Positions 1-33,572 of a stretch of DNA of 46,835 nt are shown one piece after another. Positions within the stretch are counted from its first letter, which is position 1. The number at the start of each line of letters is the position of its first letter. The DNA is from Patescibacteria group bacterium (GTDB lineage: Bacteria; Patescibacteriota; Minisyncoccia; UBA6257; 02-FULL-45-10c). The notes beneath the pieces are model-generated. The model was not told the DNA's origin, searched no databases, and worked only from the letters and a program-made list of their open reading frames with translations. Both the position numbers and the translations under genes were made by a program. Where the stretch lies: positions 1-46,835 of the forward strand of contig JAGWKK010000001.1 of NCBI GenBank assembly GCA_028865335.1, given 5' to 3'.

Positions 1-1340
1 GTAAGGACGTCAACGATATCGCCTGATTTCAATTGGTAATCAAGGGAGACGATCTTGCCGTTCACTTTCGCGCCGGTGCATGCATCGCCGATGGCGGTGT
101 GGATCTGATAGGCGAAGTCGATCGGCGTGGCGCCGACGGGCAAATCGATGACTTCGCCTTTCGGGGTGATGGCGAAGATCCGGTCCTTGAAGAAGTCGAT
201 TTTGAGCGATTCCAGGAATTCTTCCGGCGTATTGAATTCCTTCTGCCAGTTGCGCAGCTGGTTCACCCACTGCAATTCCTTTTTGTCGGCATTGATCGCC
301 TTCTTTTCTATATATTCCTTACTGCCCTTCGCCTGTTCATATGCCCAGTGGGCGGCGATACCTGTTTCCGACTCATCATGCATTTCCTGCGTGCGGATCT
401 GCACTTCCAGAATCCGGTTATCCACGCAGAACACGGTGGTGTGGATGCTGCGATATCCGTTCGGTTTCGGCAAAGCGATATAATCCTTGATCCGGTTGGG
501 GAGCGGCGGCCAGAGATTGTGGACCACGCCGAGCGCGGCATAGCAGTCGGCGATGGTCGGGACGACGATGCGGAGCGCGACGAGGTCGTAGATCTTGTCC
601 ACGTCCATGTCGTAGCGGAGAAGTTTCTTGTACAGGCTGGCGTAGCGTTTCGCGCGCGAATCAACGAGCAGAACGGGGATGCCCGCTTTGCGCAGCGCTT
701 CGATGACCATCGGTTTTATCTTTTCGGTATAGCGTTCGCGTTCCTCGTATTTCTCCTTCACGGTGCTGAGCAGCCAGCGATATTCCTGCGGATAGATGAA
801 GGGGAACGCGAGGTCTTCCAATTCGCCGCTGATTTTCTGCATCCCGAGCCGGTAGGCGATCGGGGAATAGATTTCCATGGTTTCCAGGGCGATCCGCTTC
901 TGTTTCTGCGGCGGAAGCGCGCCGAGTGTTTCCATATTATGCAGCCGGTCGGCGAGCTTCACGATGACGACGCGGATATCCTGGCTGAGCGCGAGAATCA
1001 TCTTGCGGAGATTCTCCACCTGCCGCTCCACGCCGCGGTATTTGATCTTGCCGAGCTTGGTGACGCCGTCCACGAGGAAGGCGACCTCATCTCCGAATTC
1101 GCTCCGGATTTCCTCCAGGGAATAATCCGTATCTTCCACAATGTCGTGGAGAAGTCCCGCAATGATGCTGGTCGGCCCCAGGCCCCATTCCGCGATGTAC
1201 TCGGCCGTCATCAGCGCATGATTGAAATACGGCTCGCCGGTCTTGCGCTTCTGGCCCTGGTGCAGTTTTTGGGAAAGCTCATATGCCCGGCGAATGGATT
1301 CGTCGGTCTTGATCATCTGTTCTATCTTCGGAGCGCGCAT
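1..1340 (-). CDS. rel: bifunctional (p)ppGpp synthetase/hydrolase RelA/SpoT family, N-terminal ~446 aa. The C-terminus runs off the left edge.
   Basis: My reverse-strand translation from ATG (rc of cat at 1338-1340) reads MRAPKIEQMIKTDESIRRAYELSQKLHQGQKRKTGEPYFNHAL...HDIVEDT (HD hydrolase). It continues through the synthetase motif ...YRSIHTTV... and a TGS-like region. It is absent from the ORF track because the stop lies outside the window. The listed +strand ORF 33..1379 is its antisense shadow. Confidence 0.85.
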   Translation of the reverse strand, partial: MRAPKIEQMIKTDESIRRAYELSQKLHQGQKRKTGEPYFNHALMTAEYIAEWGLGPTSIIAGLLHDIVEDTDYSLEEIRSEFGDEVAFLVDGVTKLGKIKYRGVERQVENLRKMILALSQDIRVVIVKLADRLHNMETLGALPPQKQKRIALETMEIYSPIAYRLGMQKISGELEDLAFPFIYPQEYRWLLSTVKEKYEERERYTEKIKPMVIEALRKAGIPVLLVDSRAKRYASLYKKLLRYDMDVDKIYDLVALRIVVPTIADCYAALGVVHNLWPPLPNRIKDYIALPKPNGYRSIHTTVFCVDNRILEVQIRTQEMHDESETGIAAHWAYEQAKGSKEYIEKKAINADKKELQWVNQLRNWQKEFNTPEEFLESLKIDFFKDRIFAITPKGEVIDLPVGATPIDFAYQIHTAIGDACTGAKVNGKIVSLDYQLKSGDIVDVL

Positions 1341-1375: not shown

Positions 1376-3439
1376 CTAGGCGGAGTCGGGTTCTGATTCC
1401 GGACTTGGGGCTTTCTCCTGAGTCGGCTCAGCCGCGGATTCGGCTTCTTTCGGCTTCTTTTCTTCGGGGGGATTGAGCGGATTGGTCCAGCTTGCGTAAT
1501 CGCAGTCCGGGTAGCGGTTGCAGCCCCAGAATATCTTTCCGCGGGCGCGGCCGCGGGTGACGCGGCGTTCGATGACGTCGCCTTTTCCGCATTTCGGACA
1601 GACGAGGCCGATCTTTTTCTGCTCACTCGGGATCTTCTTGGTGTTTTTGCAGTCGGGAAATCCCGAGCATGCCATGAACCTTCCGAATCGGGAGAATTTG
1701 ATGATCATCGGCTTTCCGCACTTTTCGCATACCACGCCGGTCGGCTCCGGTTCCGGCTGCTGGGTCTTTTCCACGACTTTGTATTTCTCTTCCAGGTTTT
1801 TTTCGAACGGCCCGTAGAAATTCCGGATGATGTCGTGCCAGTCCTTGCTCCCTTCCGCGATTTCATCGAGTTCGTTTTCCATGGTCGCGGTGAAATTGAT
1901 GTCCACGATCTGCGGGAAGTGCTCTTTCAGGACGTTGGTCACGATGATGCCGATGTCGGTCGGCACGAAGCGGCCGCCTTCCTTGATGACGTAATTGCGG
2001 CTCTGGATGACCGACAGCGTCGGCGCATAGGTGGATGGCCGGCCGATGCCGTGTTCTTCGAGCGCCTTGATCAAGCTGGCTTCGTTGAAACGTGGCGGCG
2101 GTTCGGTGAAATGCTGCTCCGGAGCGAATGCCTGCAGGGAGAGTTTTTCGTCCGCGGCCACTTCCGGCAGTTCGGTTTCCACGAACTTCTGCTTCCATAC
2201 CTTGAGGAAGCCGTCGAATTTGAGCATAGTTCCGTTCGCGCGGAAAAGATAGTCGTGTCCGCCGCCGGAGGCGCTGATGTCGATCTGCGAGGAATGGAAT
2301 TCCGCCTGCGGCATCTGGGTTGCGGTGAATCGCGACCAGATCATGTTGTACAGTTTTTTCTCGCCCGGATCCTCCGCGGTGATAGAGTCGGGTTCGTTGG
2401 CGATATCGGTCGGTCGGATGGCTTCGTGCGCTTCCTGTGCGAGACGCGATTTGGTCGTAAAGGTGCGCGGGGTCGGAAGTGCGTATTCCTCACCGAGGTT
2501 CTTGGTCAGCCAGGTCTGCGCCGCGGCAAGCGATTCCTTGGAAAGATTGACCGAATCGGTACGCATGTAGGTGATCAAGCCGCGTTCATACAGGCGCTGG
2601 GCGAGCAGCATGGTCTTCTTCGCGGAAAAGCCGAGACGCTTGGATGAGGTCTGCTGGAGGGTGCTGGTCGTGAACGGCGGAAGCGGATTTCGCTTCAGCT
2701 CCTTTTTCTCGACGTTCGCCACGGTGAAATCCGCATGGGCGAGCGCGTCGGTGACTGCGCCGATATCCTTGTTCGCGCGGAAGGTGAACCGCTCGACGGA
2801 TTCGTTGTCGATCTTGCTGAGATTCGCCTGCAGCGGTTTTTGCGCCGGCGTAAGGAGGTTCGCTCCCAGCGTCCAGTATTCTTCAGGGACGAATTTCTTG
2901 ATCTCCTCTTCGCGTTCGACGACGAAACGGACGGCGACGGACTGCACGCGTCCGGCGGAAAGTCCGCGGGCGATCTTCTTCCAGAGGAACGGCGAGAGTT
3001 TGTAGCCGACCAACCGGTCGAGGACGCGGCGTCCCTGCTGGGCGTTTACGAGCGCGAGATTGATTGTGCGCGGATGTTCCAGCGCGGCTTTGATCGCCGA
3101 CTTGGTGATTTCATGGAAGACGATGCGTTCGGTTTTTGTCTCATCGATGCCGAGCGCATGCGCAAGATGCCAGGCGATCGCTTCTCCTTCGCGGTCCTCA
3201 TCAGTCGCCAGAATGACCTTGTCGGCCTTCTGGGCTAGTTTCTTCAGTTTGGTGACGTTCTTTTTCGCCTTGGTCGGGATGATGTATTGCGGTTCGAAAT
3301 TATGATCCACGTCGATGCCGAGTTTGCTCTTCGGAAGGTCGCGAATATGGCCGTACGATGATTCGATCGTATAGCCTTTTTTGACGAACTTCGATATGGT
3401 TTTTGCTTTTGTCGGTGATTCGACGATGACGAGTTCCAT
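1376..3439 (-). CDS. topA: DNA topoisomerase I
   Basis: 687 aa. N-terminal Toprim MELVIVESPTKAKTISKF, topo IA core, and C-terminal Cys4 zinc-ribbon repeats (CEKCGKPM...CSGFPDC, CPKCGKG...CNRYPDC). Confidence 0.95.
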   Translation of the reverse strand: MELVIVESPTKAKTISKFVKKGYTIESSYGHIRDLPKSKLGIDVDHNFEPQYIIPTKAKKNVTKLKKLAQKADKVILATDEDREGEAIAWHLAHALGIDETKTERIVFHEITKSAIKAALEHPRTINLALVNAQQGRRVLDRLVGYKLSPFLWKKIARGLSAGRVQSVAVRFVVEREEEIKKFVPEEYWTLGANLLTPAQKPLQANLSKIDNESVERFTFRANKDIGAVTDALAHADFTVANVEKKELKRNPLPPFTTSTLQQTSSKRLGFSAKKTMLLAQRLYERGLITYMRTDSVNLSKESLAAAQTWLTKNLGEEYALPTPRTFTTKSRLAQEAHEAIRPTDIANEPDSITAEDPGEKKLYNMIWSRFTATQMPQAEFHSSQIDISASGGGHDYLFRANGTMLKFDGFLKVWKQKFVETELPEVAADEKLSLQAFAPEQHFTEPPPRFNEASLIKALEEHGIGRPSTYAPTLSVIQSRNYVIKEGGRFVPTDIGIIVTNVLKEHFPQIVDINFTATMENELDEIAEGSKDWHDIIRNFYGPFEKNLEEKYKVVEKTQQPEPEPTGVVCEKCGKPMIIKFSRFGRFMACSGFPDCKNTKKIPSEQKKIGLVCPKCGKGDVIERRVTRGRARGKIFWGCNRYPDCDYASWTNPLNPPEEKKPKEAESAAEPTQEKAPSPESEPDSA

Positions 3440-5317: not shown

Positions 5318-5437
5318 GGGTGACTAGTTCCCGCCTGTGGCGAGGCTCGCCCATAGGGCGGCAGTGGTAGAACGCTGTCCTGATAAGACAGACCTGCCTG
5401 CCGGCAGGCAGGGGTCATAGGTTCGATCCTATTCCAT
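5318..5437 (+). pseudogene. decayed copy of tRNA-Ile(GAT) carrying two insertions
   Basis: gggtgactagtt...cagtggtagaacgctgtcctgataagacaga matches the intact tRNA at 5502, apart from a 32-nt hairpin insert (5330-5362) in the D stem and the 20-nt palindrome (5393-5412) after the anticodon stem. The T arm (ataggttcgatcctat) has a 1-nt shorter loop. The 3' acceptor strand is missing (ccatttt does not pair with gggtgac). Confidence 0.65.
5393..5412. repeat. 20-nt perfect palindrome CCTGCCTGCCGGCAGGCAGG, copy 1
   Basis: Exact self-complementary 20-mer. The corresponding position in intact tRNA-Ile (between 5544 and 5545) lacks it. Confidence 0.9.
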
Positions 5438-5501
5438 TTTTACGACAACGCGTCTAGAGTTAATATCAGGGTAGGGGTCGAGGTTCGATTCCTTTTAAAT
5501 C

Positions 5502-5573: not shown

Positions 5574-5580
5574 CAAATAT

Positions 5581-5607
5581 AAAAAACCGGACTTGTTCCG
5601 GTTTTTT
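5581..5607. terminator. rho-independent terminator, bidirectional shape
   Basis: aaaaaaccgga-cttgt-tccggtttttt: a 5-bp GC stem flanked by an A6 run and a T6 run. Confidence 0.7.
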
Positions 5608-5610
5608 ATA

Positions 5611-5761
5611 TTTTGCGCAGGAATCGAACCAGCCGCACCCCATATCAGGAAGGAATGGGAAACCGCAGGTGTCCCAGAAGGGGGTCGGGGTGCGGCGTGG
5701 TTCGAGTGAGCGAGCGGGCTATCCAGCCGCGAGTGAAACTTTCATTCCTGCGTCACCCACA
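5611..5761 (+). repeat. structured module bounded by inverted and direct copies of the tRNA-Ile 3' end
   Basis: 5615-5630 gcgcaggaatcgaacc is the reverse complement of the tRNA T arm (15/16 match). 5744-5761 attcctgcgtcacccaca repeats tRNA positions 5558-5575 exactly (18 nt). Inside, cgaaccagccgcacccc pairs with ggggtgcggcgtggttcg. A gggaaacc...gtccc hairpin is homologous to the module at 33436-33572. Confidence 0.7.
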
Positions 5762-6464: not shown

Positions 6465-6565
6465 GCGCGTTTAGCCCCTGCCTTCGGTAGACAGGCCTGC
6501 CTGCCGGCAGGCAGGTCAGTAGGTAGAGCGGTCGCCGACGGCGACAGGTCGGAGAAAGGTTCTTT
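6465..6565 (+). pseudogene. decayed copy of tRNA-Val(GAC) with 40 nt of palindromic units in the D arm
   Basis: gcgcgtttagc + [6476-6515 insert] + tcagtaggtagagcg parallels gcgcccttagctcagtggtagagcg of the intact tRNA at 6584. An anticodon-like gtcg-ccGACgg-cgac follows. The T arm is degenerate and there is no 3' acceptor strand. Confidence 0.55.
6476..6515. repeat. tandem pair of palindromic units: degenerate unit (6476-6495) then perfect unit (6496-6515), copy 2
   Basis: 6496-6515 is exactly cctgcctgccggcaggcagg. 6476-6495 ccctgccttcggtagacagg resembles the variant at 11431. Confidence 0.85.
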
Positions 6566-11884: not shown

Positions 11885-11974
11885 CGCATCGCATACAGCA
11901 AGAAGTGAACAGCTCCCTCGGGAGCTGTTTACTTTTCATGATTCTTTGGTCTACAATAGTGAAAGCAGTATTTG

Positions 11975-12035
11975 CAATGCGCAGGTGGCGAAACTGGCAG
12001 ACCTGCCTGCCGGCAGGCAGGCGCACTACCTGAGG
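11975..12035 (+). pseudogene. duplicated 5' half of tRNA-Leu (through the anticodon loop), interrupted by the 20-nt palindrome
   Basis: caatgcgcaggtggcgaaactggcaga[20-nt palindrome]cgcactacc-tgagg, compared with caatgcgcaggtggcgaaactggcagacgcactaccttgagg at 12289-12330. There is no 3' half. Confidence 0.8.
12002..12021. repeat. 20-nt perfect palindrome, copy 4
   Basis: Exact cctgcctgccggcaggcagg. The intact tRNA-Leu lacks it between 12315 and 12316. Confidence 0.9.
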
Positions 12036-12046
12036 CGACAGAATAT

Positions 12047-12328
12047 ATGTATTCTGATTACGTTCTCAAAAGTATCAAGCGCTCTTATTTGTATGTCGGA
12101 ATGACGAATAATATTAATCGTCGTTTTTTTCAACACCAGTATGGCCGCGAAAAAACTACCGCGCCCTATCGACCATTTAAACTGCTCATTGTTGAAAAAT
12201 ATGATACGCGTAAATCGGCACGAGTTCGTGAAAAGTATCTAAAATCAGGAGTTGGCAAAGAGTGGATAAAGAGGTATGATTTTGAGCACAATGCGCAGGT
12301 GGCGAAACTGGCAGACGCACTACCTTGA
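12047..12328 (+). CDS. small stand-alone GIY-YIG (URI-domain) nuclease family protein, 93 aa
   Basis: MYSDYVLKSIKRSYLYVGMTNNINRRFFQHQYG...PFKLLIVEKYDTRKSARVREKYLKSGVG fits the GIY..YIG..R..H..G...E pattern. The start was trimmed to the first ATG after the tRNA fragment. The last 12 codons and the stop lie inside the tRNA-Leu gene. The gene looks AT-richer than its neighbours by eye. Confidence 0.75.
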   Translation: MYSDYVLKSIKRSYLYVGMTNNINRRFFQHQYGREKTTAPYRPFKLLIVEKYDTRKSARVREKYLKSGVGKEWIKRYDFEHNAQVAKLADALP

Positions 12329-32607: not shown

Positions 32608-33258
32608 ATGGCCGACAAGAAGCCCGCAAAGGGAGGCGGAGGGACGAACAACAGCGCTTTGGAGCTGCTGGTCTTCGGCGCGCTCGCGCTGGTGGTTCTG
32701 ACCTGGCTCAGCAGCTATCTCAAGCTGTTTTTCGACCCGATCGGATTTCTGTTGGGCATCCGGAATTATTTCGCGCCGTGGTTTCTGCATAACATCTGGT
32801 GGGTTGAGGTGGTCTCAGCCCTGATTTCCGCGATTCTCCTGTACAGCACGATTTCCATGATGCGCCGGACGCATTATTCGACGCTGAAGCGGGAGCAGGT
32901 GATGGAGTATCTCGCGAAAGAGAAAGTGCCGCATCATCGGTCGCTCAAGCTGTGGAATCAGATCCGGCGCCGGCTTGATTCTGAAAATCAGAACGATCTC
33001 CGCCTTGCGATCCTGGAGTGCGATCATTTATTGAACGAAATTCTGAAAATGTCCGGTTATCTGGGGCGCATGGACGAAAAGCTCAAGCTTCTCGATCCTT
33101 CCCAGCTTTCCAACATCGAAGACGTGAAGCGCGCCCACGCCTTGCGGGATAAGATCGCGCAGGATCCGACGTACGCGATCACGCAGGAAGAGGCCCGTGC
33201 GGCGGCGGATATTTACGGACAGGCATTCAAGGAATTCAACCTGATCCGCGAGGATTAG
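32608..33258 (+). CDS. membrane hypothetical protein (216 aa)
   Basis: Trimmed from ORF 32503, which overlaps gatA. Two to three TM helices followed by a helical soluble domain. Confidence 0.5.
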   Translation: MADKKPAKGGGGTNNSALELLVFGALALVVLTWLSSYLKLFFDPIGFLLGIRNYFAPWFLHNIWWVEVVSALISAILLYSTISMMRRTHYSTLKREQVMEYLAKEKVPHHRSLKLWNQIRRRLDSENQNDLRLAILECDHLLNEILKMSGYLGRMDEKLKLLDPSQLSNIEDVKRAHALRDKIAQDPTYAITQEEARAAADIYGQAFKEFNLIRED

Positions 33259-33321: not shown

Positions 33322-33396
33322 GCGGTAGTAGCTTAGCTGGCCTAAAGCGCCTCCCTGTCACGGAGGAGACCGTGGGTTCAAATCCCATCTACCGCG
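33322..33396 (+). tRNA. tRNA-Asp (anticodon GTC)
   Basis: Acceptor gcggtag/ctaccgc, anticodon stem cctcc/ggagg with loop ctGTCac, T arm gtggg-ttcaaat-cccat, discriminator G. Confidence 0.9.
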
Positions 33397-33397
33397 C

Positions 33398-33434
33398 AAA
33401 TTTAAAACACCTCTTTGGGGGTGTTTTAAATTTT
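33398..33434 (+). terminator. rho-independent terminator (14-bp AT-rich stem)
   Basis: aaatttaaaacacc-tctttgg-ggtgttttaaattt. Confidence 0.6.
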
Positions 33435-33435
33435 A

Positions 33436-33572
33436 TGTCCGCGATGGGATTTGAACAGAAGGGGAAGGGGTCGGGAAACGGGAGTTTCCCGTGTCGGAAG
33501 GATTGGGAAAACCGAGCCTGCCTACCGACAGGCAGGGGTTTCCCAGTGTTCTTACTCCCATCTACCGCGCAC
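33436..33572 (+). repeat. structured module bounded by inverted and direct copies of the tRNA-Asp 3' end
   Basis: 33441-33456 gcgatgggatttgaac contains the reverse complement of 14 nt of the T arm. 33556-33571 tcccatctaccgcgca repeats tRNA positions 33383-33398 exactly (16 nt). The interior has gggaaac-ggga-gtttccc and gggaaaacc...ggtttccc hairpins homologous to 5611-5761. The second hairpin's loop carries a palindromic unit. Confidence 0.7.
33517..33536. repeat. palindromic unit variant cctgcctaccgacaggcagg (18/20 match to the perfect unit)
   Basis: Located in the loop between gggaaaaccgag and ggtttccc. Confidence 0.7.

Follow-up and report, generated by a model that had tools for sequence, protein, structure and literature searches.

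The module that follows the tRNA-Asp(GTC) gene in a Patescibacteria group bacterium (contig JAGWKK010000001.1, positions 1 to 46,835, all 46,835 nucleotides of which we call the window) is one copy of a large family of non-coding insertion elements. The family occurs in groundwater ultra-small bacteria resembling those of the candidate phyla radiation (CPR) and has apparently been undescribed so far; a literature search that included the core sequence itself found no description, with most subscription journals outside its coverage and novelty therefore not proven. Throughout, a1 denotes the target copy contiguous with the gene, a2 the copy contiguous with the native downstream DNA, and a' the inverted arm between them, and loci outside the window carry numbers beginning with L.

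The insert at tRNA-Asp measures 173 bp and is non-coding. The features listed for it in the original prediction, namely a terminator, an inverted T-arm copy, a G-rich core with two hairpins and a 16-nt repeat of the tRNA 3' end, are all present, give or take 1-4 nt (Table 1). By our own arithmetic, an exact 16-mer would recur within 200 nt by chance with an expectation of ~5e-8. The inverted arm is exact as well, with 33443-33456 complementary to 33376-33389 at 14 of 14 positions and a CGCG extending the arm to 33440-33456. Both this module and its sister after tRNA-Ile(GAT) fold as a single long hairpin closed by the flanks (z -2.1 to -5.0 against shuffles), in which the conserved two-hairpin core forms the tip and the arms are copies of the neighbouring gene end.

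Comparison with relatives identifies the module as inserted DNA. The closest relatives of the ~217-aa protein encoded upstream are at most 58% identical, leaving no strain-level filled/empty pair, and we therefore relied on family-level synteny, using loci that share GatA, the ~217-aa protein and tRNA-Asp (L208-L211). In the syntenic relative L211, the same tRNA-Asp 3' end is joined directly to CTACTTCGCC, the native downstream flank of the window, giving a clean empty site relative to which the window module is an insertion. The terminator-like hairpin at 33398-33433 is missing from this empty site and belongs to the inserted DNA; hairpins of similar style are found in the Ile module and in L210 and L211. 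L208 and L001 are without the module; the closest genome by GatA in a species-level genome collection is a Parcubacteria metagenome-assembled genome at 64% identity, whose tRNA-Asp has no module. At tRNA-Met, L210 is filled with a canonical core (60.8 bits), the window is empty, and the L211 module is degenerate. This gain, loss and decay of modules among relatives is the turnover expected of mobile DNA.

The extent of the family was assessed by scanning metagenomes with a pattern built from the segment common to the Asp and Ile cores, closure of hairpin P2 being required. A looser core pattern had given 7 matches in viral contigs, all within coding DNA, and the pattern was tightened for that reason. 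At least 120 contigs matched, and the family counts given here are among the matches listed; many of the named samples are from groundwater or aquifers, such as Hainich 0.1-um filtrates. The 126 matches comprise 107 canonical Asp-type cores, 8 permuted Ile-type cores and 11 chance or degenerate hits. The conserved core spans ~70 nt and consists of GGGGUC, hairpin P1, a purine-rich joiner and hairpin P2, with the Asp-type consensus GGAAAGGGGTC-GGGAAAAC..GTTTTCCC-GTGGAGGAAGGAWT-GGGAAAACCGNGGGTTTCCC-AG. An element as a whole begins with the palindromic, terminator-like hairpin, continues with arm a' and the core, and closes with a short stretch copied from the left half-site of the target, its centre altered. 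Across 67 aligned copies the joiner is almost invariant and P2 is invariant, most of P2 having been required by the search pattern itself. P1 carries compensatory changes, AU-to-GC and AU-to-CG in 20 and 31 sequences respectively, and its covariation score was reached in none of 500 shuffles. A covariance model (R1) built from metagenome copies only, with the window copies left out, recovers both window cores at 63.8 and 24.1 bits; together with a local alignment score of 27 between them, against 15.8 +/- 2.4 for dinucleotide shuffles (1 of 1000 reached 27), this confirms the earlier suggestion that the two cores are related. A search of the window with R1 gave no convincing third copy beyond the Asp and Ile cores; a weak match at 33059-33104 on the minus strand, in the coding region upstream of tRNA-Asp (14.7 bits, E 0.04), is probably due to chance. 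A scan of the whole window against Rfam 15 at the gathering threshold returned tRNAs only, and for the two module regions a relaxed cut-off (E up to 10) brought up scattered matches at chance level, far below the gathering scores.

Several loci depart from the canonical form. Modules lacking GGGGTC and P1 and retaining the joiner, P2 and flanks, and thus truncated or degenerate, lie downstream of the L33 gene in L201 and at 3100-3170 in L211. At the same tRNA-Asp site, L210 carries at 2773-2955 a module with the same outer architecture and a different core, made up of GGGTC, a long AT-rich hairpin and then GAAGGAGGAGCGAG...; the segment GAGCGAG...GTGAAA within it is similar to the extra 39-nt hairpin in the window Ile module. 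Because the outer architecture is shared while the core differs, the family may be part of a wider superfamily. On one 4-kb contig (L119), near-identical units of tRNA-Ile(TAT) plus module lie in inverted orientation at 966-995 (-) and 3020-3049 (+), which is either genuine inverted duplication or an effect of assembly.

In every case, whether at tRNAs, L33, S9 or a third protein gene, the flanks copy the local gene end. A same-strand tRNA gene lies within 200 nt upstream of 72 of the 115 cores (median distance 76 nt), and for 7 more the contig edge is too near to judge. As to whether further tRNA genes carry such modules, at least 26 anticodons are targeted in the metagenome contigs. In the tRNA-linked copies the 5' flank is the inverted T-loop and T-stem of the local tRNA, and the 3' flank is a repeat of the tRNA 3' end. 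Protein genes serve as targets as well: the core was found downstream of L33 in no fewer than 8 loci, downstream of S9 in about 4, and at the 5' end of a third protein gene on the opposite strand, thus antisense to its host gene, in 4 loci (L096, L116, L128 and L150). The original prediction had likened the module to a site-adapting or trans-mobilised element with ends derived from its own tRNA, a proposal now strengthened by at least 115 cores with flanks matching the local gene and by the empty site in L211.

The duplicated segment starts at the insertion point and extends as far as the gene boundary, slightly past it in some copies, and leaves the gene intact. In tRNA and L33 loci it ends at the discriminator base plus 0-4 nt or at the stop codon, and at the S9 locus L165 the similarity appears to continue into the terminator. 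Its length varies accordingly from 15 to about 60 nt, and a mechanistic target-site duplication was dropped as an explanation, since the length tracks the gene boundary and is not fixed. The targets themselves, tRNA T-loops and coding-gene ends, have only a loose YC|RA motif in common; the inverted arms, which match the local target, are different in each copy, and the proximal helices vary with the target (GAAC/GTTC, GCAG/CTGC, GTGG/CCAC and others).

A consistent junction rule governs the two arms. The sequence of the inverted arm a' complements that of the native target, reading GTTCAAATCC, GTTCGAATCC, TCCAAGTCC, CTGCAAATGGT or CCACAATGGTC. In a2, 2-4 central bases are replaced, mostly AA by TT, turning native C-AAR-T into C-TTR-T; alternatives at this centre are a tandem G.A, an extra mini-hairpin such as AGCGAAGCG, or, in the Ile module, the 39-nt hairpin. 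The perfect complement of a' is longer to the tRNA than to a2 in 64 of 75 tRNA-linked copies (median 11 vs 6 nt; p = 3e-12). Since a' complements the native target better than it does the altered-centre a2, the a'/a2 stem in effect copies the double-stranded target, its centre being mismatched. This rule, the protein-gene targets and the permuted core described below were not part of the original prediction.

At the L33 loci, the displaced copy behaves as coding sequence. Comparison of a1 with a2 in seven loci gave 56 synonymous and 7 amino-acid codon differences; a2 always keeps the frame and the stop codon, and a1 and a2 have lineage-specific residues in common. GC content at third codon positions is ~0.70 in a2, ~0.63 in the gene body and ~0.50 in a1, placing a2 closer to the gene body, and neither these values nor the a1 and a2 identities across L33 loci decide which copy is the native one. 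The constraint on a2 reflects either precise, frequent excision or a recent import of a1 together with the element from a sister species.

The Ile and Asp modules were originally described as having the same architecture. This holds for the outer layout, including an inverted T-arm copy that matches at 17 of 18 positions in the Ile module (5616-5633), but not for the order of the core: the two cores are not collinear, and circular permutation of the Asp core gives the Ile core. The Ile type has an open P1 loop, both P1 strands running on into the flanks, and in it AG and GGGGGTC, which the flanks split in the Asp type, are continuous. The eight permuted matches are the window Ile module, the independent loci L101, L130, L139, L183 and L184, and the pair L092 and L199. 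The extended P1 covaries across independent permuted loci (CAAGCCCCC/GGGGGCTTG, GCATGCCCCC/GGGGGCATG, CGCACGCCCCC/GGGGGCGTG and GCCGCACCCC/GGGGTGCGGC), and the layout of L183 is nearly that of the window Ile module. In L092 (1330-1480) and L199, a whole permuted unit stands in place of P1 within a canonical core, which makes a nested or tandem 1.5-mer; the nested sequence is identical in the two contigs.

Table 1. Parts of the tRNA-Asp and tRNA-Ile modules, by position in the window
Feature	Position	Strand	Evidence
tRNA-Asp(GTC), host target gene	33322-33397	+	ARAGORN; Rfam tRNA 68.6 bits
Copy a1, T-loop-to-3'-end segment of tRNA-Asp	33376-33398	+	
AT-rich perfect palindromic hairpin AAATTTAAAACACC / GGTGTTTTAAATTT, 14+14, then T-run	33398-33433	+	inverted repeat 14/14
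Arm a' (inverted T-loop and T-stem 3' strand, then CGCG)	33440-33456	+	inverted repeat 14/14
Conserved core, canonical order	33462-33547	+	covariance model R1, 63.8 bits, E ~1e-14
GGGGTC	33467-33472	+	
Hairpin P1 (GGGAAAC GGGA GTTTCCC)	33473-33490	+	covaries across family
Purine-rich joiner GTGTCGGAAGGATT	33491-33504	+	
Hairpin P2 (GGGAAAACCG...GGTTTCCC)	33505-33544	+	
20-nt palindrome variant, 18/20 (2 mismatches), in P2 loop	33517-33536		pattern search
Proximal-helix 3' strand (TGTTC pairs with GAACA) and altered centre TTAC replacing native AAA	33545-33555	+	fold; family AA-to-TT rule
Copy a2, exact repeat of tRNA-Asp 3' end 33383-33398	33556-33571	+	16/16
Native downstream flank CTACTTCGCC	from 33572	+	
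Sister module after tRNA-Ile(GAT), permuted core	5575-5761	+	R1 24.1 bits, E ~1e-4
Ile module, palindromic hairpin	5575-5613	+	
Ile module, a'	5615-5630	+	
Ile module, P1 5' strand	5631-5641	+	
Ile module, joiner	5642-5656	+	
Ile module, P2, without palindrome	5657-5675	+	
Ile module, AGAAGGGGGTC	5676-5686	+	
Ile module, P1 3' strand	5687-5697	+	
Ile module, a2 left half	5698-5705	+	
Ile module, extra hairpin, 39 nt	5706-5744	+	
Ile module, a2 direct repeat	~5744-5761	+	

As to the nucleic acid on which the element acts, we lean towards a DNA single strand, which is favoured by strand asymmetry, the lack of a predicted promoter and the antisense loci. Basal stems hold 113 G.T wobbles on the shown strand vs 54 on the other; in the flanks, GTGAG is biased in the same way (53 vs 14), and GCGAAGC occurs 15 times on the core strand vs 3 for its complement. 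The oligonucleotide d(GCGAAGC) forms an unusually stable DNA mini-hairpin. Promoter prediction returned none for the module, which lies after the terminator-like hairpin. In the flanks of the cores from L088 to L207, GCGAAGC and CGAAG-closed loops were also seen to be enriched, with strand bias, both in spacers and at the changed centre of a2.

The module appears to come without its own mobility genes. None of the window open reading frames (ORFs) scanned matches a recombinase or transposase, and an integrase-bearing element with this core, which the original prediction had proposed to look for in relatives, was not seen: among the 67 copies whose direct repeat reaches 11 nt or more, 61 have a repeat-to-core distance of 50-190 nt, the remaining six exceed 260 nt and look like second tRNA copies or contig quirks, and no long gene-carrying or integrase-bearing version occurs among the loci examined (at least 120), the six long distances not having been inspected. 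Clustering of ORFs within 4 kb of the cores, in search of an autonomous version, yielded syntenic host genes and one helix-turn-helix (HTH)/LAGLIDADG-like ORF only. This ORF of ~200 aa (L105 650-1312; also L107, L127, L132, L140, L149, L190, L024 and L076) lies near tRNAs in about 8 loci; its Pfam match is to HTH only, the LAGLIDADG-like YWGEGDK being read from the sequence. Its placement with respect to the module varies, and it may thus be a homing-type gene in its own right.

The reading we favour, to which we assign a probability of roughly 0.45, is that of a trans-mobilised element: a folded single strand, the one shown and most likely DNA, whose stem would mimic the target with a mismatched centre and on which an enzyme supplied in trans would act. 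The stem of a' and the a copy would reproduce the double-stranded target apart from that centre, and because a' complements the native target throughout, the mismatched arm could be displaced by a target that is single-stranded, in the lagging-strand template or a transcription bubble. If a single strand exchange took place immediately 3' of the centre and replication completed it, the outcome would be a1, hairpin, a', core, altered centre and a2, in that order, with the conserved core serving as the binding or assembly platform of the enzyme. As the observed order is the one that a single strand exchange with a folded target-mimic strand would produce, we rank this reading first and an RNA-level one second.

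Integration of CTX phage at dif by XerCD proceeds through a single strand exchange with a folded strand, attP(+), that mimics the target, and integron attC sites are related. Such integrative mobile elements exploiting Xer (IMEX) resemble the module: there, too, a folded strand has a stem equal to the double-stranded target and an unpaired centre, the element encodes no recombinase, and the predicted integrated order of regenerated site, rest, inverted arm, loop and hybrid site corresponds to a1, hairpin, a', core and a2. However, the targets here are many gene ends and not dif, conserved XerC/XerD half-sites are absent, and the element is ~170 nt long, gene-less and furnished with a gene-end copy, its loop being a highly conserved structured core. 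Likewise, attC sites are imperfect single-strand hairpins with a helix, unpaired spacer, second helix and terminal structure, recognised by structure more than by sequence, but the R''/R' core sites (RYYYAAC / GTTRRRY) are absent from our modules, the stems are local target copies, the terminal structure is conserved here and variable in attC, and no integron platform or cassette ORF is present, the neighbours being GatA, PheS/PheT, GyrB, LigA and pilus genes.

Other mobile elements resemble the module in part. Miniatures of the IS200/IS605 type (PATEs, REP/REPIN) are likewise small hairpin-rich single-strand units with two similar hairpins in direct order and a bias to the lagging-strand-template strand; unlike them, the modules have no fixed tetra- or pentanucleotide target, duplicate 15 to ~60 nt of gene end and carry target-derived arms, and no TnpA, TnpB or RAYT gene is present in the window or the loci inspected. 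MITEs (miniature inverted-repeat transposable elements) are similarly small, non-coding, multi-copy and polymorphic between relatives, whereas here there are no element-constant terminal inverted repeats and no target-site duplication of fixed length. In contrast to IS110 bridge RNAs, a' pairs with a2 across both half-sites, and no recombinase gene is found among the window ORFs scanned. Retron a1/a2 repeats, TnpB/IscB guide RNA and bridge RNA were rejected as candidates, as were hammerhead and hairpin ribozymes and bulge-helix-bulge introns, since the required motifs or geometry are absent on reading the sequence. No known family is matched in all of its defining features.

Several observations weigh against a trans-mobilised folded strand. 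No enzyme has been identified among the window ORFs scanned and the loci inspected, and no circular or single-stranded intermediate has been observed, the hints from strand asymmetry being indirect; the positive GC skew found on the core strand in 40 of 47 long loci, and likewise in the window, is confounded with the usual co-orientation of tRNA genes and replication. With at least 26 anticodons and three kinds of protein gene as targets, each element must carry matched copies of a', half-site and gene end, and how a fresh matched set would originate is left unexplained by the model. The in-frame a2 of the L33 loci is not what would be expected of a dead remnant. Finally, the core has features typical of functional RNA, including the invariant purine-rich joiner, a bulged A, G.U pairs and the circular permutation.

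These last features are the starting point for the RNA-level alternative, which we consider a serious contender, if a less likely one. Here the core would be a catalytic or protein-binding RNA and a' an internal guide pairing with the ligated-exon sequence, like P1/P10 of group I introns; the unit would be self-excising or reverse-splicing in the manner of an intron, or would replace the 3' end of a transcript, the gene using a1 when unprocessed or a2 after excision. The covarying P1, invariant single-stranded purines, G.U pairs and two permutations, as in hammerhead and twister ribozymes, suit such an RNA, as does the complementarity of a' to the uninterrupted native sequence, which on both sides of the insertion point recalls the guides of group I and II introns (internal guide sequence, and exon- and intron-binding sites, IGS and EBS/IBS). 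The coding constraint on a2 in L33 loci would be expected if a2 rejoins the gene body after excision, and the nested 1.5-mers of L092 and L199 recall rolling-circle RNAs. Yet Rfam scans relaxed to E up to 10 matched no ribozyme or intron family, and 70 nt is far under any known self-splicing core and unlike the catalytic cores of group I and II introns. The terminator-like hairpin precedes the module, no promoter is predicted, a1 already completes the gene, and four loci are antisense to the host gene. Attachment of the a'/a2 helix differs between the permutations, leaving no substrate helix of fixed geometry, and spread would need a reverse transcriptase, none of which was seen nearby. A further reading, a minimal programmable mobile unit, seems to us less likely still: a' would pick the target by pairing and toehold displacement of the mismatched arm, and the core would catalyse transfer or enlist a nuclease or topoisomerase of the host, of a general kind that acts on single strands. 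Such a unit could insert and precisely excise in a reversible manner, which would explain why the displaced a2 is kept under coding selection.

That the modules serve the host, as strong bidirectional terminators and stable 3' structures that protect or insulate tRNA and ribosomal-protein transcripts and spread by local duplication and gene conversion, we regard as improbable. Their constant position at the ends of intact genes, the terminator-like hairpins and the lack of any mobility enzyme among the window ORFs scanned would fit, but local duplication cannot place nearly the same 70-nt core at unrelated gene ends dozens of times, relatives show presence, absence and decay, and an inverted target copy with a mismatched centre would have no reason. 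A decayed attL and attR remnant of an integrase-encoding island or prophage once resident in tRNA-Asp is very improbable. The 16/16 direct repeat of the tRNA 3' end is its classic scar, and insertion in the 3' part of a tRNA with a 3'-end copy preserving the gene is the habit of tRNA-targeting integrase elements; those elements, however, measure kilobases and not ~170 bp, encode an integrase, use one or few targets, and leave a classical att site without the extra inverted target copy, whereas here a single core family of constant size occupies more than 100 loci at at least 26 anticodons and protein genes, with no long integrase version among at least 120 loci. Chance resemblance or an assembly artefact, the latter named in the original prediction as grounds for refutation, can practically be set aside: the window is a single assembly, but independent assemblies from many samples show the same architecture, and the statistics are strong.

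If the favoured reading of a trans-mobilised element is right, ultra-small groundwater bacteria would carry many copies of a protein-less element of ~170 bp that reaches precise sites in essential genes and leaves those genes undamaged, the address it bears being a hairpin copied from the target, a strategy distinct from those of integrases, transposases, CRISPR-associated transposons and bridge RNAs. Were the programmable unit to prove correct, guide-directed insertion would take place without a dedicated protein gene in bacteria with very small genomes. For annotation, the ~70-nt structures beside tRNA genes, and the partial gene copies found there, are currently nameless, and selection on displaced gene ends raises the question of precise excision at the DNA or RNA level.

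The window otherwise encodes housekeeping functions, among them GatA, GatB, PheS, PheT, LigA, GyrB, TopA, DprA and type IV pilus genes. Its six tRNA genes all lie on the plus strand (ARAGORN), on which GC skew is positive along the whole window, and modules are present at two of the six, or roughly one in three.

The tRNA-Asp module has itself received an insertion. A 20-nt palindromic unit with five occurrences in the window (pattern search) sits exactly between CCGAG and GGTTT in the P2 loop, where all 67 aligned family copies have a 3-nt loop and the window has 3 + 20 nt; the R1 alignment places a 22-nt insert in the window P2 where the family has 2-3 nt. P2 without the palindrome reads CCGAGGGTTTCCC, a common family variant. 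Removal of the palindrome thus restores the family loop, marking it as a later, secondary arrival in an element that was itself already inserted, and the filled/empty comparison first proposed against the Ile hairpin alone gains 67 empty counterparts.

Elsewhere in the window, the palindrome is associated with broken tRNA copies. Upstream of the true tRNA-Ile, the region 5318-5495 contains a copy resembling that tRNA; it shares the first 13 nt and the D and anticodon region, is broken by a ~31-nt D-loop insert and by an exact 20-nt palindrome in the variable loop, and is followed by a T-arm-like fragment at 5464-5495. The palindromes at 12002 (region 11972-12050) and 6496 (6480-6560) lie inside or adjoin partial tRNA-like copies, the linked fragments being a tRNA-Leu 5' fragment split at ggcaga|cgcact and a tRNA-like D and anticodon region upstream of tRNA-Val. 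Three true tRNAs are thus each preceded by a broken, palindrome-bearing copy. Related palindromes, CAGCCTACCTGTTGGCAGGCAG and CCTGCCTGCGCAGGCAGG, are found in L103 at about 5395-5433 and in the upstream region of L128, one of them within the core joiner; the palindrome family is itself widespread and has repeatedly landed in these modules.

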